Shown piece after piece: positions 4,249-61,289 of a stretch of DNA of 64,000 nt. The DNA comes from a virus. The notes under the pieces were generated by a model. That model worked only from the letters and a program-made list of their open reading frames with translations, was not told the origin of the DNA and searched no databases. Every line of letters begins with the position of its first letter. Position 1 is the stretch's first letter. The stretch is from positions 73,044 through 137,043 of the IMG/VR virus record IMGVR_UViG_3300017593_000402; one strand, given 5' to 3'. The translations under genes and the position numbers were made by a program.

Positions 4249-4504
4249 AATACTAACTCGCATTAGGGGGTAGAAGAGTGTTTACGAGGCTGGTGATCGC
4301 TTTAATCTTGTGCTTTTTTCGTGTTTGTTAGTCACGCTCTGGGAGTAGCACGTACTAGCGCCACTCCCAGACCCGGTCCAGTAAGACCTACAGCACTTAG
4401 GGTACTTCATTAGGTGAGTCAGACCGCTTTGAATCATCGGCAGAGCTTTACACGAGGGTACAACTGTATTACAGCTATTATCTTCAATTGGGAGGTCCGA
4501 AAAA

Positions 4505-5047: not shown

Positions 5048-5749
5048 AATGGCAACTGAAGTTGTAAAGATAGTCGATACAGGAGGAAGTGGAGATTACT
5101 CATCTCTAGCTGCTTGGGAAGCAGACTTCGGGAGCTGTACCCAGTCGAACTACCCTTCTATGTCTGGAGACGGTGACCTTGTGGGAGCGGACTTGATCGC
5201 TGTTGCTGATTGTAGGTGTTCAACTGGGGATGAGGATGATAGTGCAGTTACTATTGATGGATGGACTTCTGTAGACTCGGATCACTACATTAGGATTTGG
5301 ACCGATCCAGATCAGGGGTACAGACACCCAGGGAAATGGGATGACACAAAGTACAGGCTTGTGCTCTCCGAAGGAACTATTTTTGACATACAAGAAGAGT
5401 ATGTGAGACTTATTGGCTTACAGATGAAAGGAACGAGATCGACAGGGTCTCAGTTGTTGATACATACATATTACACAAGCCGTTATCTGCGGGTCGAAAA
5501 ATGTATCCTCTGTAGAGAGAATGCTGGTGGAACAGTAAATACTGGAATTGGTTGTGATAATTCTGCTGTACAAATTTATTTGGTCAATAATCTTTTTTAT
5601 GACATACCTCAATATGCCATTCGTGGAAACGACTATTACTACTTATACAACAATACTATTATCAACTGTGGTACTGGTGTAGATGGTGGATCATCAGGGT
5701 ATTGCAGAGCTATCAACAACATTGTTGACTGTACTACTTGTTTTGTTGG
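4505..5749 (+). repeat. Long direct repeat, copy A (copy B = 62753-64000); diverged to 5327, identical from 5328
   Basis: Direct comparison: last mismatch at 5327/63578, then 422 identical bp to the window end. Confidence 0.95.
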
Positions 5750-22537: not shown

Positions 22538-25500
22538 ATGCCTAATAATGCTCTTGCAGAACTTATAGCAAGAAGAATGTTAGGACTTCCTTTGCAGGGA
22601 GACTTAAATCTGCCTTCTGAGCAGGAGCAAGTAGGATTACCTCCTACTCCTGTTTCTCAATTACCACAAACTGCTATTCCTGCTGGAACTGCATTGGTTC
22701 AAGTTCCCCAAGCCCCTACTATGAGACAAGTAGTGGGTGAAGAGGAATCGTGGCCTAGTATTCTTGCTAAGTCTGCTGCTAGCGGATTAAGCCAAGTTGC
22801 TACAGGTGCGTTGGGAGCGGCATCAGGTATTTTGGAAAATTTAGGAGCTAATACTCAAGAGCTTCAAAATCTGGCTAATGAAATCAATCAAGCTTTGGCT
22901 CCTAAAGTAGGTAAAAGTAGAGCTAAATCATGGGTTGCTGGAATTATCCAGTCTACAATAAACTCTTTAGCTCAATATGCCTTATCAAGAAGATTTGGGA
23001 TTCCTTTACTTCCTATGTTTGGGGTTACCAGTGGAGGACAGAAATACTTACAAACTAGGCAAGAAGGGTATGCTCCTAGTACAGCTTTAAAAGCTGCTGT
23101 TCCTACTGGTTTGTCCGAAGCTCTTACTGAGAAGATTCCTTTTGAAGCAGTGTTTAAAGATGTGGGCAAGCCTATTGTTAAACGGTTGATTAAACTATAT
23201 GGAGGCGAGCTATTAGGAGAGAACATTAATACTTTAACTGAAGATATTGTAAACCGAGTAGTTTTGCATCAGCCTCAGACACTTAATGATTATATTCGTG
23301 ATCTGGTTGATACTACTGTTATTACATTAGGCCAGACCAGTTTGACTGGATTACCAGGAATTGTTGCTCAAACACAACTAGAAAAGAGAAGAAAAGCAGC
23401 TATTCCTTCAACTGAAAAAGTTATTGAAGAAGCTCTAAAAGCAACAAAACAGGCTCCGACTCCTGAAGCGGCTAGCGAAACTGTATTAGATGTTCTGCCT
23501 TTGGTTATAAAGTCTTTAAGTGCTTCTAAAGTAGAAGCAAATGACTATCAAGGTTGGGCTAGGGAAGCAGTCAAAGCTTATAGTAAAATTGCTAATGCAA
23601 TTCCTGACGAAGACCTCTCTGTCAAGCGAACGCTTAATGATACCGTTAAGGCTTTTAAGCTTATAGCAAGTGGCAGAAAGTTAAAAGATGAAGAACTACC
23701 TATTTTATCTCATGCTAGTGCAGAAGTTACAGAGTGGCCTGATGATATTCCAGGAAAACAGGCTTTGCTAAAAGCTATTGACACGCTAGTCAAAACTAAC
23801 GAACCTCCCAAACCTAAAACTGCTATTCCTGAATCTAATTTACTTACTCTTGGATTTAAGCCTTCTGAGCAAAAGAAGCTTAGTGCTGAAGATAAAGAGA
23901 AGATTCTAAAGAACAAGATCAGTAGAAAGGACGTCATCCTCAAAAGAGATGGGACTGTAGTTTATAAGAAGGAAAAAGCTCCGACCAAAGAGCTGATTCC
24001 TAAACAAGAAGCTATTCCTACTAAAAAAGAAACTCCAGTTAAGAAAAAAGTTCCTGCTAAGAAGAAACCTGTTGAGAAACCAACTACGGGTTCCTTGGAT
24101 GAAACTATACAAGAGTTCAAAAACTTAGGTTATACCATTAAGGAAATAACCTCCTTAAAACCTGAGGATATGGTCAAGATTAAGGAGGAGAAAATACCCA
24201 GAGACCAGGTAGAGATAAAAGAAGGCAAGTTAATACTTAAGCCAAAGAAAGAGGCCGTTCCAAAAAAGAAAGCTCTTCCTGAAAAAGAATTAATTCCTAA
24301 AGAAGCTATTCCTAAGAAGTCTGAAAAAGAACTAATTCCCAAGGAGAAAAAACCTGTACAGGCTATTGATATTACTAAAATTGCTCAAACTCCGAAATCT
24401 AAAATAAAAGGATTGGTAACTATTGATGAGAAGGCCAAAGAAATTGTCCAAATAAAAGACAATAAGGTTATAGTACATCCAGATTTCTTTAAAAAGAGGA
24501 AAGTAACTCGTAAAAAATTGCTTAAAGAAGCTTTAACGCCGAAACCCGTAGCAAAAGAACCAATAGTAAAAAAAGGAGCAGCGGCTCCAGCTACGCCTAA
24601 ATTTACTGAGCAAGAAAGAAAATCACTCAAAAAGCTTGGGTATAGCGACAAGCAAATACAGCGTATGAAACCCGAAGCTGCTAAGGAACTCCTTTCTAAG
24701 AAAATCAAAGCAGATTTTGTAAGCGTAAAACAGGACGGAACTATCAAAGTTTTAAAACCAGAAGAAGTTAATGAAGTAGAAGCCGCTCTGAAAAAGAAGG
24801 TCAAAACACTTACTAAAAAACCCAAGCCTTTGTCTTTAATTGAACTTCCTAAAATGAAAAAAGGAGCCGAGTCTCCTGAATTAGCTGCTAAAGTTTACAA
24901 AGTTCACTACGATGGTCAGTGGCCCGAAGGCCCGATGATGGGAAAATTAAGCGGTGCGTATTCTTTTACTTTAACTGAAAAAACTCACCCTATTTTTGGG
25001 AAAAAAGGAGGAGCTACCAGTATAGTTGTGCCTAGAGGGGAACTCTCCAAGTTGCCTGAAATAATAGAACAAAAAATTAGAGAGTATGCAGAAGCTGAAG
25101 GTTTGGCTCAACCAGAGTTGATACCAGGGCATCCTGTTAAGTCTGAGTCCCGCAACCTAGAAGCAACTTCTAGAAACAAGATGCGGTTGTTTAAGACAAA
25201 CCTAAAAGCACTGAAAAAAGCAATTCCGCATCCTACTATCGAGGACAGAATTACTGCTGCTTATTATAGATTTAAGCCTGCATGGGAAAAGTTTACTGGA
25301 AAAGGAAAATACTTAATTCCTAATTTGGGTAGGACTAAATATGTGCAAGAAGAAGCCAAAGCTAGAAAAGTAGAAGATAAAGATTTATTTAAACTGGATT
25401 ATCTCCTGAGTGCCAAAGAATGGCTGGCTGGTACTAATTTCAAAGAACAAATTAAAAAAGGATTGATAACTGAAAAGGAAGCCCAGGCTCGAATTAGATT

Positions 25501-28500
25501 CTTTGATAAGTTCGGTGAAAACGTTTTCAGATTTAAGTCCGAACTAACGTCTGGTTTAACAGATATGTTTCGCAAATGGGCAGAAGGAGAGCCATATAAA
25601 CTTGACCCAGAAGAACCAGATTCCCCTCATATCAATAACATAATTATGGAGGCCCTTGGTACTCCCAAAGAAAAAATAGCTCCTCGTTATACTTTAGAAG
25701 AACTGCTTCATCCTCCAAAAGATAAAGCTGAGGAAATTTCCCATCATCTAGCCTATGGCTTTGCTTATACCATAATGGACAGGTATATTCGTTTGGCAAG
25801 AAATATTCCAGTTTCTACTGTTGAAGACATATTAGATAATATGCTTACTTACGGATTGGTTCATTATGAAATGGCGTTTGAGGATGAAGATTCTTTCTTC
25901 TTTAACGAATTGGCTCCGACCGAACTTTCTGATGAGCAAATTAAACAGTTATTAAAGAATGCTACGTTTGACAAAATAGCAGACTATTTGGAAAATTTTC
26001 ACTTTTTCTTCCTAAAGAATAATATGGGTCTCCATAAATTGGATACTATTTTAGGTCTGTCCGCAGGATTAATGAAATACACAATGGATTTAATTAGGTC
26101 TGAGGAGTATTTTGAGTCTACTGATGCTGGCCGAGTTGTAAGGAACGAAGTGAAAAATGTGGTAATGCCTGCTATCCAGAGAATAATTCAGGCTGCTGAT
26201 AAGTTGATGGTTGTAAGCCGAGACCTAAAGCATATTGTAGGTATAAAAGGTATTATGAAAAAGCTAGAGCGAACGATTCTAGCTTATCAAAATAAAGAAA
26301 TAGATGATCCTGAAAAATATATTAGAACATTAGAGCCTTATTGGAGAAAAGTAATTCTCCCTTATCTAACATCTAATGAAAAGGCTTTAGCTGAAAAGAT
26401 AGGAAGCGAAGAATTTTACAAAGCTAAGAAAGCTGGGATAGCAGATAAGATTTTGAACAACCTTGCAGACCGTATGACTGCTTACTCGACCAGTGCGAAT
26501 GGTTTTAAGAGTCTGGTTACCCAGCCAAATACAAATGCTTATCAAGCTCTTCTCTATCTTTCAAAACATGCACAAAGTTTGCATGTTCGACAGATGGCTA
26601 GCATTTTGGCCGAGCTAGGTTATGTTGCCAAAGCTCTTCCAGACGTTCCATTGGAAATACGCAGGGTAGCCTCTTCTTCTCGTGCGGTATTCAATAGCAG
26701 GGGACCTCATGTTGGTACTATTACTGTTCGACCTAACTTGAGCCCTTATGAACTTGAGGTTTCCTTTTTGCACGAAGTAACACACGCTCTGACTTATTAT
26801 AGACTTTCTGTTAACAAAGAAGCCCTCCAGACCGTTAACAATTTGATGGTTAAGGCTAGAGAACACATATCTGACACGGAAAAGAAAGTAGCGGATTTGC
26901 TGCTTCGTCAGGTTAGGCTAAAAGAAGCTGTAGATTGGGACGAGATTAACGAGCTAACAAAAGATGATGAATCATTTAAAGCTCATTATAAAGAATATGG
27001 TGACAAGTGGTACTTGGTTTTGTACGGATTAGCTCATCCCCATGAGTTTGTGGCAAACGCCATATCTGATCCTGCTACATATTTGTTTTTAAATGGCATT
27101 GAAGTAGAAAAGAAACAGAGTTTGTGGGACAAGGTAATTGATTTCGTTGTCAATGTTTTAGGAATAGGAAAAGACAAAGCTACTTTATGGACTGAATCTG
27201 TCAAAGAAATTTTGGATATTATTAATAAAAGCAAATTAGATGATGTGGTTTTCCTCAAACAGTTAAGAAGAGAACCTCAAATTTCGAATTACCTCAAACA
27301 ACAATTAGAAGCTACTGAACTAGCTGATCCTGTATTGAAAGATTTTCAGGTACAGCAATTTGAAGAGAAGCTACAGCAGTTTGCACCTTCTTTGAACGAT
27401 TATGATTATGAACATTTGAAAGGATTTGCTAAGCAGCTTCTTAAACAATCACCTAAAGCGGCTCCTAAGCTTGCAGATATAGGCAAAGTAAGACAAGCTG
27501 TAGGTTTGCCTTTGTGGACATCTCTTATCCATCCAGAATTTGCTCCTTTATTTAAACATACAGTTAAAGCGATGGAGGAGAAAAATTTTGCTCTCCACAA
27601 TATTTTGGAGACGGGTAATATTTATTTTTCCCAGCTTAATGATGAAGAAAAAGAAGTTGTTAATGCTGCAATTAAGATAAGTGATGCTTTGAATATACAA
27701 TTTACCAGGAAAGAATTGGCTAATTTTCCAAATACAGTTAAAAGCCTTAAAGCTCTTTTCAATAAGCTGTTTATTTACAGAAAAGCTCCTTCGGTTGTTC
27801 GCCAGCAAATTCTGGAGCAGTCTCCTTTTGATCTGCCAAAAGAATACTCACAACCAGAGTATATTAAGAGGTTTAAGTACTTTTTTGATTATGCTCTGCC
27901 TAGTTTTAAGATACAGAAAATTTATGGAGTTATGGCTGATGGTTACTATAACTATTGTGAAGTAACCAACAAAACAGCAGAACATATTTCGGATAAACTT
28001 CTTACTCTTATTATCGACGTTGTAGTAAAAGACCCGATGGCTTCTAATACTATTTTTGCTCTAATCAAACATCCAGAATTGAAAAAGAAAATATCTGAAG
28101 ATGCTTTAGCAACTTATGAGCCAATTCTTGAAGAAGTAGAAAATCATCCGCTTTTTAAAAAGTATGAAAGAATTAGAGATTTGATTGATAAGTTAGACTT
28201 TTATAGTCCTCGTTACAGAGACCAAGATGCTTCTGAAATGATTGTAGCTTTTGACAAAGAAGCTTTTGCCAAATCATTTAAGAAACACATAGCCCAAACT
28301 GGGAGCAGAGCTAAGGCTCTGGAAAAAGTTTATGACGACTTGTCTCAGCAAAACAAAGTATATCTAAGAGAACACGTAAGAAGAATTGATCCTGATATGC
28401 AGAAAAAGCTAGAAAGAGCCAAAAGAGTGTTTGGCAAAGACAATGTTGTCCTTCTACTTCCAAATTATAGATTAGCTGAGAGCGTATATGGAGATATTAC

Positions 28501-30310
28501 TGAAGGCAATGTCGGTGCTTTTCTTGAAGCTTTGGCGAATAAGACTAAAAGCGGCAAGGCTAGCCCAGAAACTCTAGACGAAATTCTTTCGGAAATTTCA
28601 AACATGATTGAAGAAGAGTTGCTGGCTAGAAGTAGAGCAGGACAAAAATTCCTCCACAGAAATCCTTATTTGATCCTGGGTTATCATTTAGATAAGACTA
28701 CAGAGGAAACATTTAATTATGTCAATAATGCAGCTAACTATATGGCTCGTATAGAAGCATTAGTAAACGGACTTCCTTTGCTTAATAGGATTGATCCAAA
28801 ACAACAAGCCAAGTTAAGAGATTATGCACATAAATGGTTTTTTGATCAGCTTAAACCACAGACTCAGTTTGATAAAGTTGTTGGTAAAACTAAAGCATAT
28901 ATGTTTTTGTGGTATTTAAGTGGAATGTTAAGGCCCGCAGCGGTTCAGGCTACGCAGATGTTTGTAAGCACTATTCCTTTGGCTAAGATTATTTATAAAC
29001 TGCCTTTGAGCAAGGTTAGTGCTTTGTTTATGAAAGCGTATAAAGATGTTATCCTCAACGGAAATATAGAAGAAAATGAAAATCTAACTGAAGACGAGAA
29101 AAAGTTTCTTAATATTACTTACGCTAAAGGCGTAACCACTGCCCAGTTTATTAACCAAATACGAGACGAAGTAGCAGGTAGCGGAGGTTGGACTGTAAAA
29201 GCTGCGACTTGGCTTGCTACACCTTTTGCTTACATGGAACAAACCAACCGCTTGGCCACTGCTTTAGGAGTGTACCGATTTTTTAAACAACACAATCCCA
29301 GCTTGAAACCTGATGATCCTACTGTAGTCAACGAAGCTACTGATTTAATTAATATGACCCATTTCTTAATGGGCAAACTTAACTTGCCTTCTATTGCTAC
29401 AGGAGGGACAGTACCACAAGGCTTGGCTAGGCTTGCTGTAACTTTTAGATCATTCACTATGAATTTGCTAGAACTTTATAATTATACTCTCAGGCATATG
29501 CCTGCTAGCAAAAAGCTATGGGGTTTGAACAAGGAAGGGCTAGAATTCGTAGCTTACAGTCTTTTGGCTTTCAGCATGTTTGGCGGTATTTTGTCTATAC
29601 CTTTCCTCGATGATCTTATCAAACTGCTAGAACGGCAAACAGGAAAACCTCTTAGACGATTGTTCTTTAAGAAAATTGGAGACATCAATAATCCTTTGGC
29701 TTATAGCTTAGAAAGAGGTCTTCCTTCTTTAATTGGCGTGGATTTAAGCGGTTCTCTAAAAATAGAAATACCCACTTCTCCTTCAGATGTATTGAATGCA
29801 ATATTTGGAGTATATGGAGGATTGGCCAAGAATGCTACAGATTCCCTTGTTGCTTATCAAGGATTTGATAAAATCAATGCTGTGTATCGAATTTTACCGC
29901 AATTTATAGGTAATCCTCTTAAAGCATATGAGGCCTATAAAGGATTGAAAAATCCTTATAATAAACCTATATATGACGAAAACGGTAAGCCGATTAAAGT
30001 TAGTTTGCCAGAAGCCTTATTAATCGCTACTGGGTTTAGACCAACTAGATTTGGCAAGACATATGCGTATAAAAGTGCTGCTAGAAATATTTCTGCATAT
30101 TTTAGGAAGAGGAGAAATGAGATTTATAATATGTTTAGGTCTGCTCAGACTCCAAAGCAAAGAGCCAAGGTACTTGCTGAAATAGTAAAATACAACAAGG
30201 AAGCATCTAAATATATTACTGTCCCACGAATAACTCTTAGGTCTTTGGCTACTGCTATAATGCCTAAACAAGAAAAATTGGCTGAGGAACTTAGGATGAG
30301 AGGTCTTTAA
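22538..30310 (+). CDS. Giant internal virion/polyvalent protein with zincin-like HExxH motif
   Basis: 2590 aa; Lys/Pro/Glu-rich tract; FLHEVTHALT...HEFVANA motif; terminal position in the virion operon. Confidence 0.7.
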   Translation: MPNNALAELIARRMLGLPLQGDLNLPSEQEQVGLPPTPVSQLPQTAIPAGTALVQVPQAPTMRQVVGEEESWPSILAKSAASGLSQVATGALGAASGILENLGANTQELQNLANEINQALAPKVGKSRAKSWVAGIIQSTINSLAQYALSRRFGIPLLPMFGVTSGGQKYLQTRQEGYAPSTALKAAVPTGLSEALTEKIPFEAVFKDVGKPIVKRLIKLYGGELLGENINTLTEDIVNRVVLHQPQTLNDYIRDLVDTTVITLGQTSLTGLPGIVAQTQLEKRRKAAIPSTEKVIEEALKATKQAPTPEAASETVLDVLPLVIKSLSASKVEANDYQGWAREAVKAYSKIANAIPDEDLSVKRTLNDTVKAFKLIASGRKLKDEELPILSHASAEVTEWPDDIPGKQALLKAIDTLVKTNEPPKPKTAIPESNLLTLGFKPSEQKKLSAEDKEKILKNKISRKDVILKRDGTVVYKKEKAPTKELIPKQEAIPTKKETPVKKKVPAKKKPVEKPTTGSLDETIQEFKNLGYTIKEITSLKPEDMVKIKEEKIPRDQVEIKEGKLILKPKKEAVPKKKALPEKELIPKEAIPKKSEKELIPKEKKPVQAIDITKIAQTPKSKIKGLVTIDEKAKEIVQIKDNKVIVHPDFFKKRKVTRKKLLKEALTPKPVAKEPIVKKGAAAPATPKFTEQERKSLKKLGYSDKQIQRMKPEAAKELLSKKIKADFVSVKQDGTIKVLKPEEVNEVEAALKKKVKTLTKKPKPLSLIELPKMKKGAESPELAAKVYKVHYDGQWPEGPMMGKLSGAYSFTLTEKTHPIFGKKGGATSIVVPRGELSKLPEIIEQKIREYAEAEGLAQPELIPGHPVKSESRNLEATSRNKMRLFKTNLKALKKAIPHPTIEDRITAAYYRFKPAWEKFTGKGKYLIPNLGRTKYVQEEAKARKVEDKDLFKLDYLLSAKEWLAGTNFKEQIKKGLITEKEAQARIRFFDKFGENVFRFKSELTSGLTDMFRKWAEGEPYKLDPEEPDSPHINNIIMEALGTPKEKIAPRYTLEELLHPPKDKAEEISHHLAYGFAYTIMDRYIRLARNIPVSTVEDILDNMLTYGLVHYEMAFEDEDSFFFNELAPTELSDEQIKQLLKNATFDKIADYLENFHFFFLKNNMGLHKLDTILGLSAGLMKYTMDLIRSEEYFESTDAGRVVRNEVKNVVMPAIQRIIQAADKLMVVSRDLKHIVGIKGIMKKLERTILAYQNKEIDDPEKYIRTLEPYWRKVILPYLTSNEKALAEKIGSEEFYKAKKAGIADKILNNLADRMTAYSTSANGFKSLVTQPNTNAYQALLYLSKHAQSLHVRQMASILAELGYVAKALPDVPLEIRRVASSSRAVFNSRGPHVGTITVRPNLSPYELEVSFLHEVTHALTYYRLSVNKEALQTVNNLMVKAREHISDTEKKVADLLLRQVRLKEAVDWDEINELTKDDESFKAHYKEYGDKWYLVLYGLAHPHEFVANAISDPATYLFLNGIEVEKKQSLWDKVIDFVVNVLGIGKDKATLWTESVKEILDIINKSKLDDVVFLKQLRREPQISNYLKQQLEATELADPVLKDFQVQQFEEKLQQFAPSLNDYDYEHLKGFAKQLLKQSPKAAPKLADIGKVRQAVGLPLWTSLIHPEFAPLFKHTVKAMEEKNFALHNILETGNIYFSQLNDEEKEVVNAAIKISDALNIQFTRKELANFPNTVKSLKALFNKLFIYRKAPSVVRQQILEQSPFDLPKEYSQPEYIKRFKYFFDYALPSFKIQKIYGVMADGYYNYCEVTNKTAEHISDKLLTLIIDVVVKDPMASNTIFALIKHPELKKKISEDALATYEPILEEVENHPLFKKYERIRDLIDKLDFYSPRYRDQDASEMIVAFDKEAFAKSFKKHIAQTGSRAKALEKVYDDLSQQNKVYLREHVRRIDPDMQKKLERAKRVFGKDNVVLLLPNYRLAESVYGDITEGNVGAFLEALANKTKSGKASPETLDEILSEISNMIEEELLARSRAGQKFLHRNPYLILGYHLDKTTEETFNYVNNAANYMARIEALVNGLPLLNRIDPKQQAKLRDYAHKWFFDQLKPQTQFDKVVGKTKAYMFLWYLSGMLRPAAVQATQMFVSTIPLAKIIYKLPLSKVSALFMKAYKDVILNGNIEENENLTEDEKKFLNITYAKGVTTAQFINQIRDEVAGSGGWTVKAATWLATPFAYMEQTNRLATALGVYRFFKQHNPSLKPDDPTVVNEATDLINMTHFLMGKLNLPSIATGGTVPQGLARLAVTFRSFTMNLLELYNYTLRHMPASKKLWGLNKEGLEFVAYSLLAFSMFGGILSIPFLDDLIKLLERQTGKPLRRLFFKKIGDINNPLAYSLERGLPSLIGVDLSGSLKIEIPTSPSDVLNAIFGVYGGLAKNATDSLVAYQGFDKINAVYRILPQFIGNPLKAYEAYKGLKNPYNKPIYDENGKPIKVSLPEALLIATGFRPTRFGKTYAYKSAARNISAYFRKRRNEIYNMFRSAQTPKQRAKVLAEIVKYNKEASKYITVPRITLRSLATAIMPKQEKLAEELRMRGL
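25516..25529. repeat. 14-bp palindrome TGAAAACGTTTTCA (intragenic)
   Basis: Exact copy. Confidence 0.95.
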
Positions 30311-32664
30311 AAACTCAAATTAGTTCCTATTTTTCCTTCTGTTTCTATGGGGTATTCGACTGTAATACCCCAATGTTTTTTTATGTACTCTTTAGTTCTG
30401 TTTTCAAAACAGTCCTTTAGTATTTCTTGGCATTTTTCTATTACATCTTCTCTAGCTCGATAGTAATAAGCATCGTGAATAAACAAGTTGGTAAGTTTTA
30501 CTTTAGTTCTCAATTTAGGTTGGCTGTTTATTTCCTTATAAAAAAGGCTAACTCCTAGACATGCTAGTTCACTGCTAAAATTTTGTACTGGAGTGTTAAT
30601 AGCTTGTCGTTCGGCCTTGCTTCTGAAGTAAATATTTTTGTCATTAATTCTAGGCAGATGTCTTTTCCTTCCAAGCACACAACGAATGTATCCACGCCTA
30701 GATGCAATAGCTACCATCTTTTTGTGATAAATAGGCAATCTCCAGTACCCGTTAGGAGCTGAGAAAAATTTTTCTCTGTATTCCACTGCTTCCTTTTCTG
30801 TAAGCACAATATCATAGTTTTTAAAAGCATAATCCACTAAAGTTTTTGCTTGCATTCCATACAACAATCCAAATACAACAGGCTTTGCTTTTTGTCTTTG
30901 CTCTTTGCTTACTTTGTTATAAGGAGTTCCTGTCAATATAGAAGCAGTGTATGTATGTATATCCAATCCTTTGCGTAGTGTTCCTAGTATGTTTTGGTCA
31001 TTGGCTAACCAGCCTGCGATTCTAACTTCACTTTGAGACAAATCTTGTGTTCCAATCAAGTAGCCATCTTCTGCGGTAATCAATTCAAGTATGTATTTGG
31101 CTAATTCTCCGTGAGTAGGAAATTGTTGCATAGGAGGGTCAAGCATAACTGTTCTACCAGTTACAGTTCCAGTTAGAAAAATTTTAGGATAAATATATCC
31201 GTTAGGTTTAAGGTTTTTCCTTATTAAAGGAATATAAGTCGAAAGAATTTTTTTAATCTTGTTGTATTTAATAAGATTAGCAACCCAGGGATGGTCTTTA
31301 AACCGCTTAAGATGATGTTTGTCTGTTGAAGGTTGGTTGGTTTTTTCTGTAAATGAAATAGGCTTCAATCCTAAGCCTTTTTTCGTAAACATATATTCAG
31401 CAATAACATTAGGGGTAAGTTTCTCAGCTCCTGGCGGTAAGAGTTTTTCTTCTAATGTATGTAACTCGTCATACAAAGCGTCTTCGTTTTCATCAAGTTT
31501 GTTTATGTTTATAGGCCAACCCGTTTGCGATATATCAGCAAAGGCTTTTTCTACAGGAACTATATAATAGCGATAATACCGCATTAACTTCTTATCTTTC
31601 TTTATATGCGTTGTTAAGTTTTTGTATATTTCTAACGTGGATTTAGCATCAATAGCTACGTATTTGATTAATCTTTTCTTTTCTATTTTGTCTAAGTTAG
31701 TTCTGTCATTGTTTACTATGTTTTTAATGTTATGAAAATTGGTATACACGTTAGCTAGGTGTTCCAAGTTATACGACTCCATATTTTCGTCCACAATGTG
31801 AGCCATATTCATTACATCATAAACAGGGCCTTTTACTTCACATTTTAAATTTACTTTGCATACCCATTCATCAAAAGGACGATTGTGTACTATTTTGATT
31901 ATTTTTGGACTGCTTAAAATTTCTCTGACTTTGGGTTTGAGAGTATTGTTTTTAATCTGGGAGGAATAAATCTTATCTGTTCCTGCTAAGGAAATGGCCA
32001 AAACTTTCCCGTTAGTGTGCATTACATTCAAATTTTCAGTTTCCAAATCAAAAGCTACTACATTGGACGTAGGCAGCTCAATGGAAGAATAGTCTATGTC
32101 TATTTCTGATAGTTTTCCGCTTTTAAAATATTCTACTGCTTCCTTCAAATCAGAATAAAAAAGCTTTTCAGCTTCCTTCATTTTAGAGACAGGGATATAA
32201 GGGTACCCTGTGTGGGCCTGGCGTAACACATATGAGGGATGGTATGTGGCAATGTAAGTATAAGGACCTAAAGTATGAAATGCACCTCTGAATTTACCTA
32301 TTTTCTTTTTGTTTAAATGTTGGAATAAAGCCCACTCCCCAAGTAAAACTATAAGGTTAGGTTGGAGCATTTCCAGGGCTTTCATTGCATATTCTTTACA
32401 GTGCTTCACAGCCTTTTCTATGTCTGTTCTAGAATCATCAGGGTATTTAGGGCATCTCATAGAATTTAGAATTGAATAGTCCTTTCGTTTTAATCCCAGC
32501 AGTGAAAACGTTTTCATTAATAATTGACCGCTTGGTCCGATAAAAGGCTTGCCTGCTTCTAGCTCTTCTTTGCCAGGGCATTCTCCTATTACAACAAGCT
32601 TGGGAGAATTTTTTTCATATTTAACTTTTGGCCTTCCTCTAAAAGGACAACCTTTGCAACTCAT
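30307..32664 (-). CDS. Family A DNA polymerase with N-terminal family-4-like uracil-DNA glycosylase domain and 3'-5' exonuclease
   Basis: CKGC..GECPG..E..GKPFIGPSG..TYHPSY (UDG); FDLET (ExoI); DLSQSEVR, RQKAKPVVFGLLYG and IHDA (Pol A motifs). Confidence 0.92.
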   Translation of the reverse strand: MSCKGCPFRGRPKVKYEKNSPKLVVIGECPGKEELEAGKPFIGPSGQLLMKTFSLLGLKRKDYSILNSMRCPKYPDDSRTDIEKAVKHCKEYAMKALEMLQPNLIVLLGEWALFQHLNKKKIGKFRGAFHTLGPYTYIATYHPSYVLRQAHTGYPYIPVSKMKEAEKLFYSDLKEAVEYFKSGKLSEIDIDYSSIELPTSNVVAFDLETENLNVMHTNGKVLAISLAGTDKIYSSQIKNNTLKPKVREILSSPKIIKIVHNRPFDEWVCKVNLKCEVKGPVYDVMNMAHIVDENMESYNLEHLANVYTNFHNIKNIVNNDRTNLDKIEKKRLIKYVAIDAKSTLEIYKNLTTHIKKDKKLMRYYRYYIVPVEKAFADISQTGWPININKLDENEDALYDELHTLEEKLLPPGAEKLTPNVIAEYMFTKKGLGLKPISFTEKTNQPSTDKHHLKRFKDHPWVANLIKYNKIKKILSTYIPLIRKNLKPNGYIYPKIFLTGTVTGRTVMLDPPMQQFPTHGELAKYILELITAEDGYLIGTQDLSQSEVRIAGWLANDQNILGTLRKGLDIHTYTASILTGTPYNKVSKEQRQKAKPVVFGLLYGMQAKTLVDYAFKNYDIVLTEKEAVEYREKFFSAPNGYWRLPIYHKKMVAIASRRGYIRCVLGRKRHLPRINDKNIYFRSKAERQAINTPVQNFSSELACLGVSLFYKEINSQPKLRTKVKLTNLFIHDAYYYRAREDVIEKCQEILKDCFENRTKEYIKKHWGITVEYPIETEGKIGTNLSF
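32503..32516. repeat. 14-bp palindrome TGAAAACGTTTTCA (in polymerase gene)
   Basis: Exact copy. Confidence 0.95.
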
Positions 32665-52675: not shown

Positions 52676-53003
52676 TTATTATAAATTTTTTCATTTCACA
52701 GTTACGCTTGGATTGGAATGCGGTTTGGATCATCCTATTGAGTGGGCTGTTAATGTATCTAGAACGCCTGGCGGTACTTTGTCTTCTGATTATTATAAAA
52801 GAGTAATCAAATACCTCCCTCGTTATCTAGTAGAAATATTTGAGTGCTTTTATTTGAGACGCCCTGATAACGCTAATGAAGTTTTGAGGATGTGTGACGA
52901 TCATTATCCAGAAGGACATTTATGTAAAGGTTATTTTTCTGCCCTGAAACCAAAAATAGAAGCTTATTTGAAGGAGAATAAAGATGGAAATATTTCATAT
53001 TGA
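52668..53003 (+). CDS. Hypothetical protein
   Basis: Overlapping operon ORF. Confidence 0.6.
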   Translation: MNDYYKFFHFTVTLGLECGLDHPIEWAVNVSRTPGGTLSSDYYKRVIKYLPRYLVEIFECFYLRRPDNANEVLRMCDDHYPEGHLCKGYFSALKPKIEAYLKENKDGNISY

Positions 53004-53178
53004 TTTAGAAAAAGTGGAAAATAGGTGTATTGCTGATCCTTCTTTTTATTCGATAGTCAGCTATTTAGTTAAGTTAATTTTGTCTAAACAGGTGGAGCCT
53101 GTGGATTTGTTTGGAGGAGCTGTCCTTGCTGCAAAAATAGCAGAGACACTGTTAGAGAAGAAACCTTTGACTAATTAG
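52984..53178 (+). CDS. Hypothetical protein
   Basis: AAGGAG RBS. Confidence 0.6.
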   Translation: MEIFHIDLEKVENRCIADPSFYSIVSYLVKLILSKQVEPVDLFGGAVLAAKIAETLLEKKPLTN

Positions 53179-53187
53179 GAGGGAAAT

Positions 53188-53541
53188 ATGTATCTATATA
53201 AATACGAGAAACCTTATTATGTTCTTTGTGAAGATGGGGTAGAGACATGGAGAGGCAAAGAAGTAGCTGTAGCTTTTTCTTACCATCCCAATGAAGCTGT
53301 TTTGTATAAACATGGTGATCCTGAGTTGGTAGAGAAATGGTATCGTGAAATCCTTCGTAGGTTTCGGTTAGTGGCTAATCAATTTATTAAATTTTCTACT
53401 TTTGAAGAGGAAGTAAAGTTTTGGCAGGATGAATTGGAGAGTATCAAGCTTATAAGAGGTAAATTTCCTGTAGATGAGTTGAATAAGTGTTTGAGTATTT
53501 CTGGGTATATCGGGAGGTTTTATGAGCGACTTCAAGATTGA
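53188..53541 (+). CDS. Hypothetical protein
   Basis: GGAGG RBS. Confidence 0.65.
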   Translation: MYLYKYEKPYYVLCEDGVETWRGKEVAVAFSYHPNEAVLYKHGDPELVEKWYREILRRFRLVANQFIKFSTFEEEVKFWQDELESIKLIRGKFPVDELNKCLSISGYIGRFYERLQD

Positions 53542-53704
53542 TTTTCTTGAATATATTGTAAAAGATATATTGGGAGTGGCTCAATCAGAAAAGTGGAAAG
53601 CTAGTGACCAAGTAGCTTCTATCCACGCTGTGTGGATGGAAATTGGACGTAGATTAGGTAAGGAGATGGATAAAATAAGAAAGATGGAAAGAAATGAAAA
53701 GTGA
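53522..53704 (+). CDS. Hypothetical protein
   Basis: GGAGG RBS. Confidence 0.6.
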   Translation: MSDFKIDFLEYIVKDILGVAQSEKWKASDQVASIHAVWMEIGRRLGKEMDKIRKMERNEK

Positions 53705-53716
53705 GAGGAGGTTTTT

Positions 53717-54328
53717 ATGAAAAAATTGGTAGAGTTAGAGGAAAGATTTAATGTAAAAATTAGGTTGTTGGAGCCTTTACTAGGCACGGTTCCTAAAGAC
53801 CAAGAAGTATATAAAAGGTTTATAGCAAGCAAGGCTCCTGACCCTGAAGGAGGAGAAGAAGAGACTGAGACTGTGGTGTCAGTAGAAGAGAAAGGCTGGA
53901 CTGGATTCCATAAGGACGAGAAAGGATTATTTATCTATAATTACATGATTAAAGGCTTTCTTAAAGCCGCTTGTGAAGTGTGTATGAGTGCAGGAGCATT
54001 AGATAAGATTTCAGCATATAAAAAATGGATTGACTTAGTTGTTTTTATCGACCCTCGACGGATTTATTTCGGCAAATACGAACCTGATGGGTGTCTTGAA
54101 AGACCTTTGCGGACTTTAACGCCTAAAGGCCCAAGAGTTAGTGTTTGCAGAAGTGATTATATAAAAGAAGGTACTGAAATAAATTTTATGGTTCGGATTC
54201 TGAAGAATAAGGCAGGGATTGACCAAGTTGCGATAGAACAAATGCTTGACTATGGCCAGTATGTTGGTCTTGGTCAATGGCGAGGTTCAGGAGGTTATGG
54301 AAGATTTGAAATAGTAGAGATAACGTGA
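53717..54328 (+). CDS. Stand-alone RAMP/Cas7(Csm3)-like protein
   Basis: N-terminal strand VKIRLLEPLLG, IKGFLKAA helix, and C-terminal Gly-rich loop GLGQWRGSGGYGRFEI, all RAMP hallmarks; no cas operon or CRISPR nearby. Confidence 0.8.
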   Translation: MKKLVELEERFNVKIRLLEPLLGTVPKDQEVYKRFIASKAPDPEGGEEETETVVSVEEKGWTGFHKDEKGLFIYNYMIKGFLKAACEVCMSAGALDKISAYKKWIDLVVFIDPRRIYFGKYEPDGCLERPLRTLTPKGPRVSVCRSDYIKEGTEINFMVRILKNKAGIDQVAIEQMLDYGQYVGLGQWRGSGGYGRFEIVEIT

Positions 54329-54329
54329 T

Positions 54330-54592
54330 AGTGGCGTTATGTTAGGTGTGGGTGTGGTTCAGTAGACCGAAGTTTCGGTTCAGTGAAGTTCAGTTGAGGC
54401 AAGGCAAAGTAAATTTTAGTCAAGGTATAGTCGAGTTTAGTTGAGGTATTGCTCAGTAACGTTCTGGCAATGTAGCGTGCGAAGTAAAGTTTGGGAATAG
54501 TACTGTATCTTCAGGCACAGGTAAGGTATCGCAAAGCCTTGGAACAGTATCGCATATTTTGGCAAAGGTAAGGCACTGTATGGCTGCGGTGA
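54330..54592 (+). ncRNA. Non-coding NGY-NN pentamer array (candidate guide RNA) directly downstream of the RAMP-like gene
   Basis: 50 units parsed by hand; 46 have G at position 2 and 43 are NGY; grouped into mostly 21- or 26-nt blocks; stops in all three + frames. Confidence 0.7.
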
Positions 54593-54613
54593 ACAAAAGG
54601 AGGTGAGTAATTT

Positions 54614-54949
54614 ATGAAAGTTCTATCAACAGGTCCGTTGGAGTCTCGGTTACAGGTTTTACCTGGGTTACGTGAAAGGAGAGGAGTTCTCTATATAGAT
54701 TTTAATTTTTATATGGAAAACTCACATATAGTAGGAGAGGTGTTTCATAAGTTAAACATAGTTCCAATTCAAGTTAGTACTAATTTAGCTGTTGAGAAAG
54801 TATTCGTTTATTTTGTGAGTCCTTTGTTAGACAAAACTCCTTTAGGGTACAGACCACCTATGTTTGAGGTTGAGATTGAAACTGATGACGGTACATATAT
54901 TAAAAATGTAAAATTAGTAGAAAGAGAGGTTGATAGGTATGAAATGTAA
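54614..54949 (+). CDS. Hypothetical protein
   Basis: AAGGAGGTG RBS. Confidence 0.7.
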   Translation: MKVLSTGPLESRLQVLPGLRERRGVLYIDFNFYMENSHIVGEVFHKLNIVPIQVSTNLAVEKVFVYFVSPLLDKTPLGYRPPMFEVEIETDDGTYIKNVKLVEREVDRYEM

Positions 54950-55349
54950 GATTGAGATTAAAATAGATTTGGAAGAAAAAACTTATGACGTGGATGTTTC
55001 GCCTGACCTTCCAGGGCACTTGTTGGTTTACAAAAATTTAGGGAAAATAGCCCTCCTTCATGCTTTGAAAAACCTTGACTATGGTGACGGAAACCCTCTC
55101 GGTAATTTCAAATTTTCTGAAGAAATTACAGGGGTCCCAGCTTGGAAAGGAGCTTTAGTAAGACTAACTGATAAATGGGGACGTATTAAGTCTATTGTGA
55201 AAAGAAAGGACGAAAAAACTTATGTTGATGAAAGCCTTGATGAAACTCTTCTAGATAACGCTGTTTATAGTCTTATAATTTTGGCACTGAGAGCGAAAGA
55301 AAACAAAAATATGTTTGAAGATGATCTTGATGAAGTATATTATCCGTAA
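54930..55349 (+). CDS. DUF1599/nucleotide-modification-associated helical protein
   Basis: KNLDYG..NF..VRLTDKWGR..DESLDETLLD..VY. Confidence 0.7.
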   Translation: MIGMKCKIEIKIDLEEKTYDVDVSPDLPGHLLVYKNLGKIALLHALKNLDYGDGNPLGNFKFSEEITGVPAWKGALVRLTDKWGRIKSIVKRKDEKTYVDESLDETLLDNAVYSLIILALRAKENKNMFEDDLDEVYYP

Positions 55350-55357
55350 TTTTGGAG

Positions 55358-55371
55358 TGAAAACGTTTTCA
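55358..55371. repeat. 14-bp palindrome just upstream of an RBS
   Basis: Exact; AGTG...CACT flanks. Confidence 0.95.
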
Positions 55372-55387
55372 CTTTTAGGAGGGAATT

Positions 55388-55735
55388 ATGAGAAAAACTG
55401 TGGATTGGGAAGAGCTAGCCAAATCACGAGGGTTTAAGGACCCTAAGCAGCTTATTATTGAGTTATATTATAATCAAAATTTGGGTGACCAAGAAATAAG
55501 CGATATGTTAGGGATTAGTAGACCTACTTTTCAAAGGTGTTTGAAGAGTTATAATTTGCCTGCAAAAGGTGCTATGCTTTCTAAATATATAGCAGGACCT
55601 CCTTGTCCTAAGTGCGGAAGCACAAAAGCTAGAACGATATATTCCAAAGCTCATAGTTATGGTTTTAAACGAATTAAGGTATGTCGTGATTGCAAAAACA
55701 GATTTGTTACTGTTGAATATATCAAAGAAGAGTAG
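55388..55735 (+). CDS. HTH plus Zn-ribbon putative transcription regulator
   Basis: DQEISDMLGISRPTF (HTH); CPKC...CRDCKNRFVTVE. Confidence 0.7.
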   Translation: MRKTVDWEELAKSRGFKDPKQLIIELYYNQNLGDQEISDMLGISRPTFQRCLKSYNLPAKGAMLSKYIAGPPCPKCGSTKARTIYSKAHSYGFKRIKVCRDCKNRFVTVEYIKEE

Positions 55736-57622: not shown

Positions 57623-60600
57623 ATGGTTTCGTTTGTTCCTGTTAACCAAAATCCTACAAAAGCTCTGCCTAAGGACACTATTACCGAAATGGTGGAGCTT
57701 AAACCTCAAGATGAGTTTGTTCTGTCTAATTTAGCTCATTATGTTTTAAGTAAGTTTGAAGAAGCAAAAAGGGCTAAAGTTAAGGTAGAAAAAAGATTAA
57801 TAGATTGTTTGCGAAGATTTCAAAGTAAATACTCTCCAGAGAAATTAAGAGAAATAGAAGCTATTGATGCGCCTCCAATTTATATTCCTTTGACTTCGAT
57901 AAAAGTAAGAGCTTTAACTGCATGGTTGGTGGATGTTCTTTTTCAGACTCCTGACCTTCCTTATGATATAACTCCTACTCCCATCCCAGAATTGCCTATA
58001 GAAGTTCAAAATCTTTTAGCACGTAGGATTTACGAGACAATCCTTCCTATGATGGATTTACTTCCTTTTACAGAGCTTCAGTCTATGGCTTTGGATGCCA
58101 AAAGTTTGGCAGAGAAAGAAATTAAAATAGAAGTAGATAAATGGTCTAAAAAACTGGCGGAAGGATTTAAGAAAAAGCTAGACGATGTTTTTATTGAAGG
58201 AGGACTGCCAGAGGCTTTATCCGCAATGTGTGTGGACATTGCGATTTTTCCTACAGCTATAATTAAAGGCGGAATTCTGAGAAAAGAAAAAGGATATGTA
58301 AGGACCAAGTACGGTTTGGAGCCTAAGAACAAGGTTATTTATACTTTTAATAGAGTTTCTCCTTTCAACGCCTATCCTGCTCCTTATGCCAGTGGCTTTG
58401 AGAATTATTTTATAGAAATTATTCCTCTTCTTCCTGAAGACCTTTATAAATTAATAGGTATGCCTGGTTACAATGCAGAAGTTTTGATTGATGTTTTAGA
58501 TAGATACGAAAATGGGTACAGATTCCATCATTCTAATTATGGTTTAGAACGAGATGAGTTGGAAAGTAAAGATTTTGCTTCTTCATCTGATTATGAGTAT
58601 ATCGATATGTTGGAATTTTGGGGACCTGTTAAAGGTTCCATGTTAAGAGAATTTGGTGTTAGCGTTCCTAGTGATAACGAGTACTACGAAGCTACTGTTT
58701 GGGTAGTAGAAAACTATGTAGTCAAAGCCGTATTAAACGAAAATCCGTTAGGTCTAAAACCCTACGCTAAAGCTTCTTTTATAGACATTCCTGATTCTTT
58801 TTGGGGTCAAGCTCTTCCAGAAGTACTAGCTCCTATCCAAGACTCTGTTAATGCTTTTGCTAGAGCTATAGTAGTTAATTCTATATTGTCTTCTGGACCT
58901 ATGATAGAACGCAACATTGACAGGGTTGACCCTAGCCAGCCTAAGATGGTCATTCCCTGGCACATGTATGACGCCCATGATTCTGCTCTTAATTCTGCTC
59001 CTGCTTATAGGTTTTTTCAACCTCAATTAGTTGCTGATCGTATAGCTAACACTATGGCTTTTTATTTAAAGATGGCAGACGAGACGTGCGGTATACCAAG
59101 CTATGCTCATGGTGATATTACAGTTGGTGGAGCAGGTCGAGCTTTGGCAGATTACGAATTGGTCTTAACTGAGACTGGGGCTAAACCTATTTCCTCTATC
59201 AAAGTAGGAGATAAGGTAGCGGGTACCGATGGCAAGTTTTATGAAGTGTTAGGTGTTTATCCACAGAAAGGAGAGCGTTTAATCTATCGTGTGCATTTTA
59301 GCAATGGGTTTACAGTTGATTGCGATGCAGAACATTTGTGGACTGTCTCCAGTAAACCTTCTAGAAAGAATAGCTGGCAGACTCTGACTTTGACTGAATT
59401 ATTGAATGAAGGAATATTTAGACATGATAGTAATCGTAAGAGTAAGGGCTTAAGACCGAAGTGGGCTGTGCCTAAGATAAAACCAGTACAGTTTCCTGAG
59501 CGTGAAGTAAAGATAGACCCTTATACTTTGGGCGTAATCTTGGGAGACGGAGACAATCGAGGCAGGATTCATCTAAATACAGAAGACAGCGAGCATATAG
59601 TTAGTCAGTTGGCCTATAACGTAGGGAAGCCCAGTTATAACTCCGCTAAGACTGCTGTTTCTTATACAGTTAAAGGTGTAAGGAAGTGGTTAAAGTTCTA
59701 TGGTCTGGGAGGCACAACCGTAACTGATAAATTCATTCCAGAAGATTATCTGTTTAATACCGTAGATGCTCGATTGGCTTTGTTGCGTGGATTGATGGAT
59801 ACGGAAGGTTATGTTAACGAAGGAAGAGTGTTCTTGTCTTCTTCATCTAGAAAACTAATAGAACAGGTAAAATTTCTCGTTATTTCTCTTGGTGGTTGGG
59901 CAGGCGATATAATTGAATACCCCGAAAAAGACGAAGAAGTTAAAGGCCGTCCAATTCATAGAAAGAAGAATTATAGGTTCTATTTTTCTCTGAGTGAAAA
60001 CGTTTTCACTTTGCCTCGGAAGAAGAAAGCAGTAAAGAATGGGAAACGCTCTACACGGTTTGTTTATATTAGAGGAATACAATTGCTGAGCGAAGGCACT
60101 ACTACTTGTATAAAAGTTTCCAGTCCTGATCATTTGTTTTTGTGTGCTAATCTTATTCCAACACATAATACTGCAACAGGACTGTCAATGCTTACAAGTA
60201 ATGCTACTCGTGGTATTAAGGCAGTCTTAAGAAATATAGATAAGGGAATAATTGAACCGATTGTTAAACGCCAATATTATGCGTTGATCAAAGAGGCTAA
60301 TGTGACTGATATTCCTGATCTTAAAATTAGAACAAAAGGTGCGGTCTCTTTGTCTGAAAGAGAAATGGAAGCAACTAGAGCTTTGGAATTTCTTCGAGTG
60401 GTTAGTAATCCTCTCGACCAAGCGATGGTGCCTCCTGAAGGACGACGTTATCTTCTTACTTCTGCTGCAAAAGCTACTGGTTTTGATCCTGATAGAATAT
60501 TTGGTTATGAAGCTGATTTGCCGCAGATGCTTCGGCCTCTTATTGAGGAAACTCAAAGACAGTTTGCACAACAACAAAGTCCTTTAAATAGTCCGCAGAA

Positions 60601-60667
60601 CAAAGCTGTTCAGTTGGGAATGAATACGTCTAACTATGTGAACGAGAACGGGAGAGCTGCATTATGA
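57623..60667 (+). CDS. Portal protein interrupted by an intein (671 aa after splicing)
   Basis: Follows TerL; SFWGQAL, ADETCGIP, and GAGR|TATGLSML restored on intein removal. Confidence 0.85.
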   Translation: MVSFVPVNQNPTKALPKDTITEMVELKPQDEFVLSNLAHYVLSKFEEAKRAKVKVEKRLIDCLRRFQSKYSPEKLREIEAIDAPPIYIPLTSIKVRALTAWLVDVLFQTPDLPYDITPTPIPELPIEVQNLLARRIYETILPMMDLLPFTELQSMALDAKSLAEKEIKIEVDKWSKKLAEGFKKKLDDVFIEGGLPEALSAMCVDIAIFPTAIIKGGILRKEKGYVRTKYGLEPKNKVIYTFNRVSPFNAYPAPYASGFENYFIEIIPLLPEDLYKLIGMPGYNAEVLIDVLDRYENGYRFHHSNYGLERDELESKDFASSSDYEYIDMLEFWGPVKGSMLREFGVSVPSDNEYYEATVWVVENYVVKAVLNENPLGLKPYAKASFIDIPDSFWGQALPEVLAPIQDSVNAFARAIVVNSILSSGPMIERNIDRVDPSQPKMVIPWHMYDAHDSALNSAPAYRFFQPQLVADRIANTMAFYLKMADETCGIPSYAHGDITVGGAGRALADYELVLTETGAKPISSIKVGDKVAGTDGKFYEVLGVYPQKGERLIYRVHFSNGFTVDCDAEHLWTVSSKPSRKNSWQTLTLTELLNEGIFRHDSNRKSKGLRPKWAVPKIKPVQFPEREVKIDPYTLGVILGDGDNRGRIHLNTEDSEHIVSQLAYNVGKPSYNSAKTAVSYTVKGVRKWLKFYGLGGTTVTDKFIPEDYLFNTVDARLALLRGLMDTEGYVNEGRVFLSSSSRKLIEQVKFLVISLGGWAGDIIEYPEKDEEVKGRPIHRKKNYRFYFSLSENVFTLPRKKKAVKNGKRSTRFVYIRGIQLLSEGTTTCIKVSSPDHLFLCANLIPTHNTATGLSMLTSNATRGIKAVLRNIDKGIIEPIVKRQYYALIKEANVTDIPDLKIRTKGAVSLSEREMEATRALEFLRVVSNPLDQAMVPPEGRRYLLTSAAKATGFDPDRIFGYEADLPQMLRPLIEETQRQFAQQQSPLNSPQNKAVQLGMNTSNYVNENGRAAL
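59141..60169 (+). mobile_element. 343-aa intein with LAGLIDADG homing endonuclease; Ala1, class-3-type
   Basis: Starts ALADYE; block B CDAEHLW; LGVILGDG and LRGLMDTEG; block F TCIKV; ends THN before Thr+1. Confidence 0.9.
59995..60008. repeat. 14-bp palindrome inside the intein
   Basis: Exact copy. Confidence 0.95.
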
Positions 60668-60882
60668 AAGAGGTATTTAAAAGATTAAGAGCATCTAATC
60701 CAAATTTGTTTAAAGCTTTGAATGAATATTTTAGAAGGGAGCTGGAAAACACATTTATAAAGATGTTGGCTTGTGAGGAAAACAACCGTCTTCATTTTTT
60801 AAGAGGGATTGGAAGTGCTTATTTAAGAACCTTAAATGATATGATGGAAATAAAAGAAGAGAACACTAAAGTCAAAATCTAA
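60664..60882 (+). CDS. Small post-portal protein
   Basis: ATGA coupling; LHFLRG motif. Confidence 0.7.
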   Translation: MKEVFKRLRASNPNLFKALNEYFRRELENTFIKMLACEENNRLHFLRGIGSAYLRTLNDMMEIKEENTKVKI

Positions 60883-60899
60883 TTAAATGGAGGTGTGCT

Positions 60900-61289
60900 A
60901 TGGAAAATTTTGGTAGACAGCTTGTAGCAGAATTGGCTCCTTATTTCATTACTTTTATTGTAACTGTAGTTAGTTTGTTTTTAACTTTGGCGGTAACGTG
61001 GTTAAAGAACAGAATTCAGTCAGAGAAAGCAGAGAAAGCTATAGATATAGCAGAAAGTGCAGTTTATGATGTGGTTCAACACATGGAACAGACTGTTAGG
61101 CCTATGCTTTCGGATGGTAAGCTGGATGACCAGGAGCGACAGTTGATTAAGGTAAAAGCCTTGTCTAGGATAAAAGAAACATTAGGTCCGCAAGTTATAA
61201 AAGCTTTGACGTTGGTGACTAATGATGTTGAAAAGTATTTGGAAACCAAGTTGGAAGCTGCTGTACATAACACCAAAAACTTTAAATAA
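60900..61289 (+). CDS. Holin-like protein (single N-terminal TM)
   Basis: TM helix then AV..VEQ-like and LEAAV motifs resembling LL-H-type holins. Confidence 0.65.
   Translation: MENFGRQLVAELAPYFITFIVTVVSLFLTLAVTWLKNRIQSEKAEKAIDIAESAVYDVVQHMEQTVRPMLSDGKLDDQERQLIKVKALSRIKETLGPQVIKALTLVTNDVEKYLETKLEAAVHNTKNFK

Follow-up and report, generated by a model that had tools for sequence, protein, structure and literature searches.

A probable VIPR system in a tailed phage from a hydrothermal vent metagenome: one Cas7-like gene and a punctuated pentamer array

The DNA analysed here, called the window in what follows, is a stretch of 64,000 nucleotides (positions 73,044 to 137,043 of IMG/VR virus record IMGVR_UViG_3300017593_000402); unless stated otherwise, coordinates are those of the window. 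It contains what is very probably a VIPR system of a tailed phage, made of one vipr gene and one predicted guide array, with no dedicated accessory gene found beside them, a reading to which we give a probability of about 0.8. VIPR, for Viral Interference Programmable Repeat, was first described in 2026 preprints (bioRxiv 10.64898/2026.04.26.720920 and 10.64898/2026.04.26.720927), to which a sequence-only reading of the window had already pointed. In the portion of the first preprint available to us, a Vipr protein acts with vrRNAs made of GGY/NN pentamers that hold a DNA code with a 1-nt skip; such systems silence rival phages and satellites, and come in seven types (10.64898/2026.04.26.720920).

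The vipr gene lies at positions 53717..54328 on the plus strand, from an ATG start to a TGA stop in the ORF list, with a ribosome-binding site, GAGGAGG, read from the sequence at 53705..53711 (+), 6 nt 5' of the ATG. It is present in a single copy in the genome, which has 137,043 bp and a CheckV completeness of 100%, and whose DNA runs are labelled hydrothermal vent metagenome. The product is a single-domain RAMP (Cas7-like) protein of 203 amino acids. It has no Pfam match, phmmer finds nothing meaningful for it in the PDB, and its only match in PHROGs is weak (phrog_4652, function unknown, E 0.004). Its best match in BFVD is a phage protein named 'Cas system-associated RAMP superfamily protein' (E 3e-17, 38% identity), and an NCBI relative, J7J18_06425, is 82% identical to it. 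The family is large: one search returned 405 close relatives, and in an exhaustive search 1745 clusters (50% identity) matched at E<=0.001.

The RAMP nature of the protein, proposed from its letters alone, is confirmed by structure comparison. Its AlphaFold2 model has a pLDDT of 92.9 and a pTM of 0.86, and the top matches of a Foldseek search of the PDB are Cas7-type RAMPs only (type VII Cas7 at E 8.6e-9, Csm3, Cas7-11); model and comparison together give it the Cas7 fold. Two strands of the model, residues 125-135 and 138-149, form a long beta-hairpin (codons at 54089..54163, +) that may be the 'thumb', judging by its position in the Cas7 fold; this thumb-like element carries the residues R129, R132, G138 and R140, which are near-invariant in the family alignment. 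The same alignment delimits a glycine-rich loop, GLGQWRGSGGYGR, at residues 184-196 (codons at 54266..54304, +), in which G184, G186, Q187, W188, R189, G192 and G195 are invariant or near-invariant, and which aligns with the G-loops of Cas7, Csm4 and the Vipr of Escherichia phage SUSP1.

Since the Foldseek structure library extends to 2026-04-08 and includes no Vipr structures, homology to Vipr was tested by profile. A 90-member profile of the window family, compared to the PDB, matches Cas7 (21bh_B, E 1.2e-4) and Csm4 (E 0.007) in their C-terminal glycine loops, and more weakly SUSP1 Vipr, deposited as chain 36pp_D (E 0.33). Against the single sequence of SUSP1 Vipr (ALH47069.1 in GenBank KT454805.2), the family profile aligns over the G-loop only (36 columns, 64.7%). 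Relatives of SUSP1 Vipr were collected, and 40 of these SUSP1-clade proteins were aligned into a second profile: hhalign then aligns the two profiles over 185 columns, at 96.8% and E 2.6e-10. The window protein is a minimal Cas7-like RAMP fold, homologous to the experimentally tested SUSP1 Vipr.

A G/T-rich tract begins 1 nt past the TGA of vipr and stops about 10 nt before the ribosome-binding site AAAGGAGGTGA of the next ORF, which encodes 111 amino acids of no known family (site and start codon at 54596..54616, +, with the ATG at 54614). The sequence-only reading had described this tract as periodic, with units of five nucleotides, and the statistics agree. Between 54329 and 54600, identity at lag 5 reaches 112 matches (z 5.6), and the count of G facing G at the same lag is 47 (z 6.4), both against the same 1000 dinucleotide-preserving shuffles; lags 10, 11 and 16 are also raised, and lags 2-4 and 7-9 are depleted. 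The global Fourier sum of the tract is flat at period 5 (0.34) and Tandem Repeats Finder is blank on it, because the register slips by +1 about every 4-5 units; the 5-nt rhythm is therefore local, as the 'block punctuation' that had also been proposed implies.

The units were delimited with a cyclic 5-state HMM, in which one-base insertions are allowed, trained on positions 53001-55500. It yields one block, at 54330..54586 on the plus strand, which we describe as a vrRNA-type array of 257 nt, composed of 49 pentamer units of the form N-G-Y-N-N arranged in 12 blocks of 2-5 units. Unit position 1 holds A 20 times, G 18 times, C 6 times and T 5 times; position 2 is a G in 45/49 units; position 3 is a pyrimidine in 47/49 (T 35, C 12, A 2); positions 4 and 5 hold mixed bases. 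The motif NGY fits 43/49 units, where base composition alone predicts about 13%, RGY fits 33/49, and strict GGY just 16/49, in line with the proposal that this is a degenerate, NGY variant of the published repeat. The further claim that the tract is free of ORFs stands for ORFs of at least 50 amino acids and fails below that size: ORFs of 32, 42 and 47 amino acids overlap it, and these are absent as kept ORFs from the close relative L001.

As a positive control, the same HMM applied to phiSUSP1 recovers GGT-NN units in one upstream and three downstream blocks, matching the published layout. In the whole 137,043-bp genome, on either strand, the array at 54330-54586 is the sole HMM block. An HMM trained on the whole genome, and that one only, proposes a second block at genome positions 57862-57979, outside the window; it was rejected as a probable false positive because the G-Y core is missing from most of its units, and because an ORF on the minus strand overlaps it. 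The first scan for lag-5 identity also flagged two 100-nt windows with z>3, at 31-131 and 60801-60901, neither of which is an HMM unit block. The same holds for a lag-5 window with z>3 at 29331-29441, inside an ORF of 2590 amino acids (22538-30310, +) that has no Pfam match at E<=1e-4.

The 5-nt periodicity expected downstream of homologues, if gene and tract belong together, is found there. We fetched 58 viral loci with relatives that are 36-97% identical to the window protein. A lag-5 scan of the stretch of 3 kb on each side of the gene has its strongest window adjoining the gene in nearly all 58, and a self-trained HMM detects nGY-type blocks, 40 nt long or more, in 55/58 (there is none in L025, L028 and L041), compared to 2/58 loci after local shuffling. 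By our own reading of the table of 58 loci, the block starts at most 150 nt from the 3' end of the gene in 49 of them; it is upstream only in three (L010, L019 and L055), and starts 590-715 nt downstream in three others (L024, L051 and L056). Ten further loci come from prokaryote MAGs of several phyla: eight have the block, and one of the other two is truncated at the gene. On the opposite strand a block is found in 18/58 viral loci. Twelve of these blocks coincide with the tract already described, in clades that have GC as the core; the strand is not callable in these clades, because the fixed pair GC is palindromic. Gene and tract stay associated across a very large family, most of whose members are viral.

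The neighbourhood of the gene shows no such constancy. When the window is added to the 58 loci, the largest cluster of neighbouring genes covers 10/59 loci, and no conserved accessory gene was found. The neighbours of the window's vipr recur only in L001 among these 59 loci, and this includes the 111-aa next ORF, whose homologue lies beside vipr only there. In the genome, vipr sits among small unknown genes, between a minus-strand replication module and the lysozyme and large-terminase genes, with phage genes on both sides. Models for Cas1, Cas2, Cas6_C and the Pfam RAMPs family have 0 matches each in the whole genome, and a repeat scan finds 0 CRISPR-like spaced 16-mers; the absence of cas1, cas2 and cas6 genes and of a repeat-spacer array, noted from the sequence alone, is thus upheld by these searches.

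Several genes of the window deserve mention in their own right. One kb downstream of vipr, positions 55388-55735 (+) encode a 115-aa protein with an HTH_23 domain and an NrdR-like zinc ribbon, two genes before the large terminase with the phage lysozyme between them; its role may be that of a small terminase or of a DNA-binding helper, and outside the window it recurs next to vipr in L001 only. The 139-aa protein of 54930-55349 (+) matches phrog_1485 (E 9e-12) and, below threshold, DUF1599 ('nucleotide modification associated domain 1', E 7e-4). Just past the large terminase, an ORF of 1014 amino acids (57623-60667, +) contains a LAGLIDADG_3 domain at residues 716-757, which may be an intein or a homing endonuclease within a structural gene in portal position. 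On the minus strand, 30307-32664 encodes a 785-aa protein that combines in one chain a uracil-DNA-glycosylase-superfamily domain, a 3'-5' exonuclease and a family A DNA polymerase.

The location of the tract suggests a second reading, in which it would act in cis within the operon and not as a guide in trans; the RAMP protein could, for example, land on this part of the mRNA and so regulate its own expression or that of the downstream genes. The tract does fill the entire gap from the vipr stop to the next ribosome-binding site; a scan around it finds promoters and terminators at background level (8 promoter-like sites vs 6.7 expected, and 1 terminator-like site vs 1.5), with none that stands out as separating vipr from the next gene; and no trans target was found in the local scans described below. 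However, the three loci with the block upstream only, and the three in which it lies 590-715 nt downstream, speak against such an element, the gene that follows the tract is not conserved along with it, and the variable positions differ freely among relatives around a fixed G-Y core, as expected of a code more than of a fixed operator. Homologous VIPR systems, moreover, act in trans according to the available text of 10.64898/2026.04.26.720920. We consider a cis-acting element very improbable, and keep to the reading of the tract as a guide array.

The comparison of close relatives shows which positions of a unit are constrained. The sequencing runs listed for the stretch are DNA runs, with no RNA run among them; DNA contigs from four of the runs are identical to the window and offer no population variants. 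The comparison was made with the locus L001, whose protein is 97% identical and whose array can be aligned with that of the window. The differences between the two arrays at unit positions 1 to 5 number 12, 1, 16, 4 and 8 of 49 (chi-square p 0.0014). The G of position 2 is nearly frozen, with 1 change in 49. All the changes at position 3 (16/16) are T/C transitions, so that a pyrimidine is all that this position requires. The rate of drift at position 1 is close to that at position 3, and, the G aside, positions 4 and 5 differ least. The two arrays also differ by indels of 5 nt, or one unit, and of 26 nt, or one 5-unit block and its extra base. Indel lengths are heterogeneous in arrays of distant clades, where 5 nt and 41 nt are frequent and 13, 19 and 44 nt also occur, and the argument from indels is therefore confined to the window and L001. 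Within two distant sub-clades, compared through pairs that are not independent, positions 2 and 3 are fixed (0.023 and 0.028), and positions 1, 4 and 5 are alike variable (0.074, 0.082 and 0.072).

These comparisons bear on a third reading, in which the tract would work as DNA, in the form of iterons or of a bent or origin-like region, or would be a product of chance composition, the RAMP gene being an unrelated orphan. The blank outcomes of Tandem Repeats Finder and of the Fourier sum speak for it. We nevertheless regard it as highly improbable: the lag-5 signal stands at z 5.6 in the sole such block of 137 kb, the G strand of the tract is the sense strand of the vipr gene, the block accompanies the gene in 55/58 viral and 8/10 MAG loci vs 2/58 shuffled ones, and the changes at position 3 are transitions only.

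The freedom of the first base has a possible counterpart in the protein. In the available part of 10.64898/2026.04.26.720927, the first G of the repeat is contacted by H17 and D177 of SUSP1 Vipr, the second by R138 and W178, and the pocket of the third base, Y3, includes R179. When the profiles are aligned, the window family has a 5-residue gap where H17 would be, and the near-invariant Q187 in place of D177; the tryptophan that stacks on the second G (W188) and the arginine of the pyrimidine pocket (R189) are kept. The loss of the residues that read the first G would thus match the free first base of the repeat, as a correlation between two clades.

The slips of register are themselves regular. 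The HMM parse places 11 punctuation points, where one or more extra bases end a unit, between 54350 and 54566 (+), at 54350, 54376, 54397, 54423, 54444, 54465, 54481-54482, 54493, 54519, 54540 and 54566. Extra bases thus occur in 11/49 units, one base in 10 units and two in 1 unit, and the points divide the array into its 12 blocks. A unit that starts with GG follows every point except 54481-54482: the proportion is 10/11 after an extra base, and 8/37 elsewhere in the array (Fisher p 6e-5). The block punctuation foreseen by the sequence-only reading is therefore real in the window, and the rule is kept across the family. In every parsed locus, 10-25% of the units have an insertion, and GG follows the insertion in most cases (97/99 in L034, 27/27 in L038). 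Between insertions, 763/942 runs have 4-7 units, with a peak at 5, duplicate loci included in this count. The consensus of the boundary, computed on 718 insertions from 44 de-duplicated loci, is G-Y-R-A-n / G-G-Y-A; it leaves out as near-duplicates L001, L012, L013, L017, L030, L046, L048, L049, L052, L053, L054 and L057, and as unparsed L025, L028 and L041. As a sequence pattern, this punctuation mark, a step of one base and then a strict GGY unit, recurs every 4-7 units throughout the branch. The blocks that it delimits are probably individual short guides, or else turn markers of a filament. The largest array in the set of loci examined is that of L034, a related phage on a 77-kb contig, in which arrays at 2053-2926 and 3576-5226 flank vipr and total about 485 units.

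A further reading gives these blocks more weight. The protein-RNA particle could be the same as in the tested type II systems, with another reading rule and guide format: each block of 4-7 units would be a mini-guide of its own, with three bases read per unit (GY+NNN), possibly on RNA or single-stranded DNA instead of duplex DNA. This fits the loss or change of the residues that read the first G, the similar variability of positions 1, 4 and 5 in two distant sub-clades where positions 2 and 3 are fixed (in non-independent pairs), the family-wide boundary consensus and spacing of the punctuation, and the indel of a whole block between the window and L001. Three observations pull the other way. 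Between the window and L001, position 1 changes like the free pyrimidine (12 vs 16/49) and fewer changes fall at positions 4 and 5 (4 and 8/49), which looks like NN plus a free base; rules that read NNN score no higher than shuffled controls when local DNA is scanned; and 10.64898/2026.04.26.720920, in its available text, has both YNNNG repeats and 'staggered' arrays within VIPR without another rule. We regard this different rule as possible but less likely, and do not adopt it.

A specific form of this idea, rather doubtful in our opinion, is that the array is a denser guide format, with 12 tail-less mini-guides of 2-5 units (4-7 family-wide), each opened by a strict GGY after a six-base step, roughly a single turn of the helix that six Vipr subunits form, and that a Vipr without contacts to the first G might read three variable bases per unit. 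If it were true, a large branch of VIPR would have its own punctuation and reading rule, with guide ends set by the register of the RNA and not by tails or ribozymes.

Local searches for targets were carried out under both kinds of rule, over about 0.7 Mb of DNA in total. Sliding windows of 8-16 units with skips of 0-3, scanned against the phage's own genome, score at the level of shuffled controls; so do individual blocks under five rules, scanned against the own genome and the pooled fetched loci, and the arrays of five related phages scanned against all five genomes. One weak outlier emerged, 26/32 under zero skip for a control maximum of 24, with an AT-rich code. Blocks of 4-5 units contain 8-10 NN bases, which are matched by chance in less than 1 Mb; either several blocks would therefore act together or three bases per unit would be read.

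At the RNA level, the predicted fold of the tract is no better than that of shuffles (z -0.31), and Rfam has nothing at E<=1 between 53500 and 55000. Its lone match at E<=10 in that interval, U6atac at E 1.9, is far below the gathering score and was rejected as chance. By Rfam, by the fold compared to shuffles and by the HMM parse, the array is continuous, with no structured 3' tail or ribozyme.

With the locus read as a VIPR system, its operation may be sketched by analogy with the published type II mechanism. The array would be transcribed together with vipr, and Vipr protomers would polymerise along the RNA, one per pentamer, each gripping the G-Y core and exposing the variable bases. The resulting filament would read the double-stranded DNA of a rival mobile element by a gapped code, and silence that element. 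In the branch of the window, this scheme would operate with a free first base in the triplet, with no tails, and with an array cut into blocks by a one-base step and a strict GGY.

VIPR is a discovery only months old, of which type II alone has been dissected, and the window adds a complete and compact example, from a hydrothermal vent phage, in which no helper gene was found. Three features of its branch are regular: the free first base, which goes with the loss of the residues for the first G; the drift of the third base among pyrimidines only; and the GGY punctuation every 4-7 units. They bear on how guides could be delimited without tails, and on the number of bases read per unit.

It remains to place the locus among known systems. 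Type II VIPR, as in Escherichia phage SUSP1 and in a Pseudomonas fulva prophage, resembles it in several respects: both have a phage-borne, single-RRM RAMP protein of about 200 amino acids in which the W and R of the G-loop are kept, both have an adjoining gene for a pentamer repeat RNA on the same strand, and both lack cas genes and a CRISPR array, in the genome of the window by the Cas1, Cas2, Cas6_C and RAMPs models and the repeat scan. The differences lie mainly in the array. In the window the first G of GGY is free (18 G and 20 A in 49 units), a +1 step precedes a strict GGY unit every 4-5 units, and the array is one continuous run of 257 nt, whereas type II vrRNAs are about 100 nt long, with 9-16 repeats and a structured tail each. 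In addition, no conserved vap gene was found beside the vipr genes of the window family; such an accessory gene is usual in VIPR systems, though not universal.

The Cas7 backbone subunits of class 1 CRISPR systems (type VII Cas7, Csm3 of type III-A, Cas7-11) are more distant, with 12-17% identity only. Unlike class 1 effectors, the window is without Cas1, Cas2, Cas6_C, a CRISPR array or a Pfam RAMPs match, and the step along the RNA would be 5 nt in its system, in contrast to 6 nt in Cas7.

As for membership in VIPR, the locus has a protein homologous to a characterised Vipr, far more than the minimum of at least 4 adjacent pentamers, linkage of gene and array across homologues, and a non-CRISPR, mostly viral context; it has neither the canonical GGY core (16/49) nor a structured 3' tail or ribozyme. 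The first of these absences bars it from type II-like membership and not from VIPR, because 10.64898/2026.04.26.720920, as far as its available text goes, allows 'a related consensus', with the alternative repeats NNNGG, YNNNG and NNNNG. A fixed G-Y with a free base ahead is YNNNG in another register, insofar as that text defines the variant. Another preprint (bioRxiv 10.64898/2026.10.21.760802) describes, in the part available, non-canonical WGT/NN and TGH/NN arrays beside Vipr-like folds, and the A-G-T units of the window fit its WGT/NN form. With regard to tails, the accessible sections of 10.64898/2026.04.26.720920 state that a structured 3' tail or a ribozyme separates vrRNAs in types II, I and V, and describe ribozyme-separated arrays as well as 'staggered', tail-less ones, the latter in the Methods and the legend of fig. 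S18. The wording of the legend fits an array in which the end of one guide is the start of the next, a likeness drawn from the text description alone. Those sections place both YNNNG and 'staggered' arrays within VIPR, and propose no other reading rule for them. Since the class of system, degenerate repeats such as YNNNG and WGT/NN, and 'staggered' arrays already appear in the published text at hand, the locus is best regarded as an example of VIPR, and not as a new kind of system.
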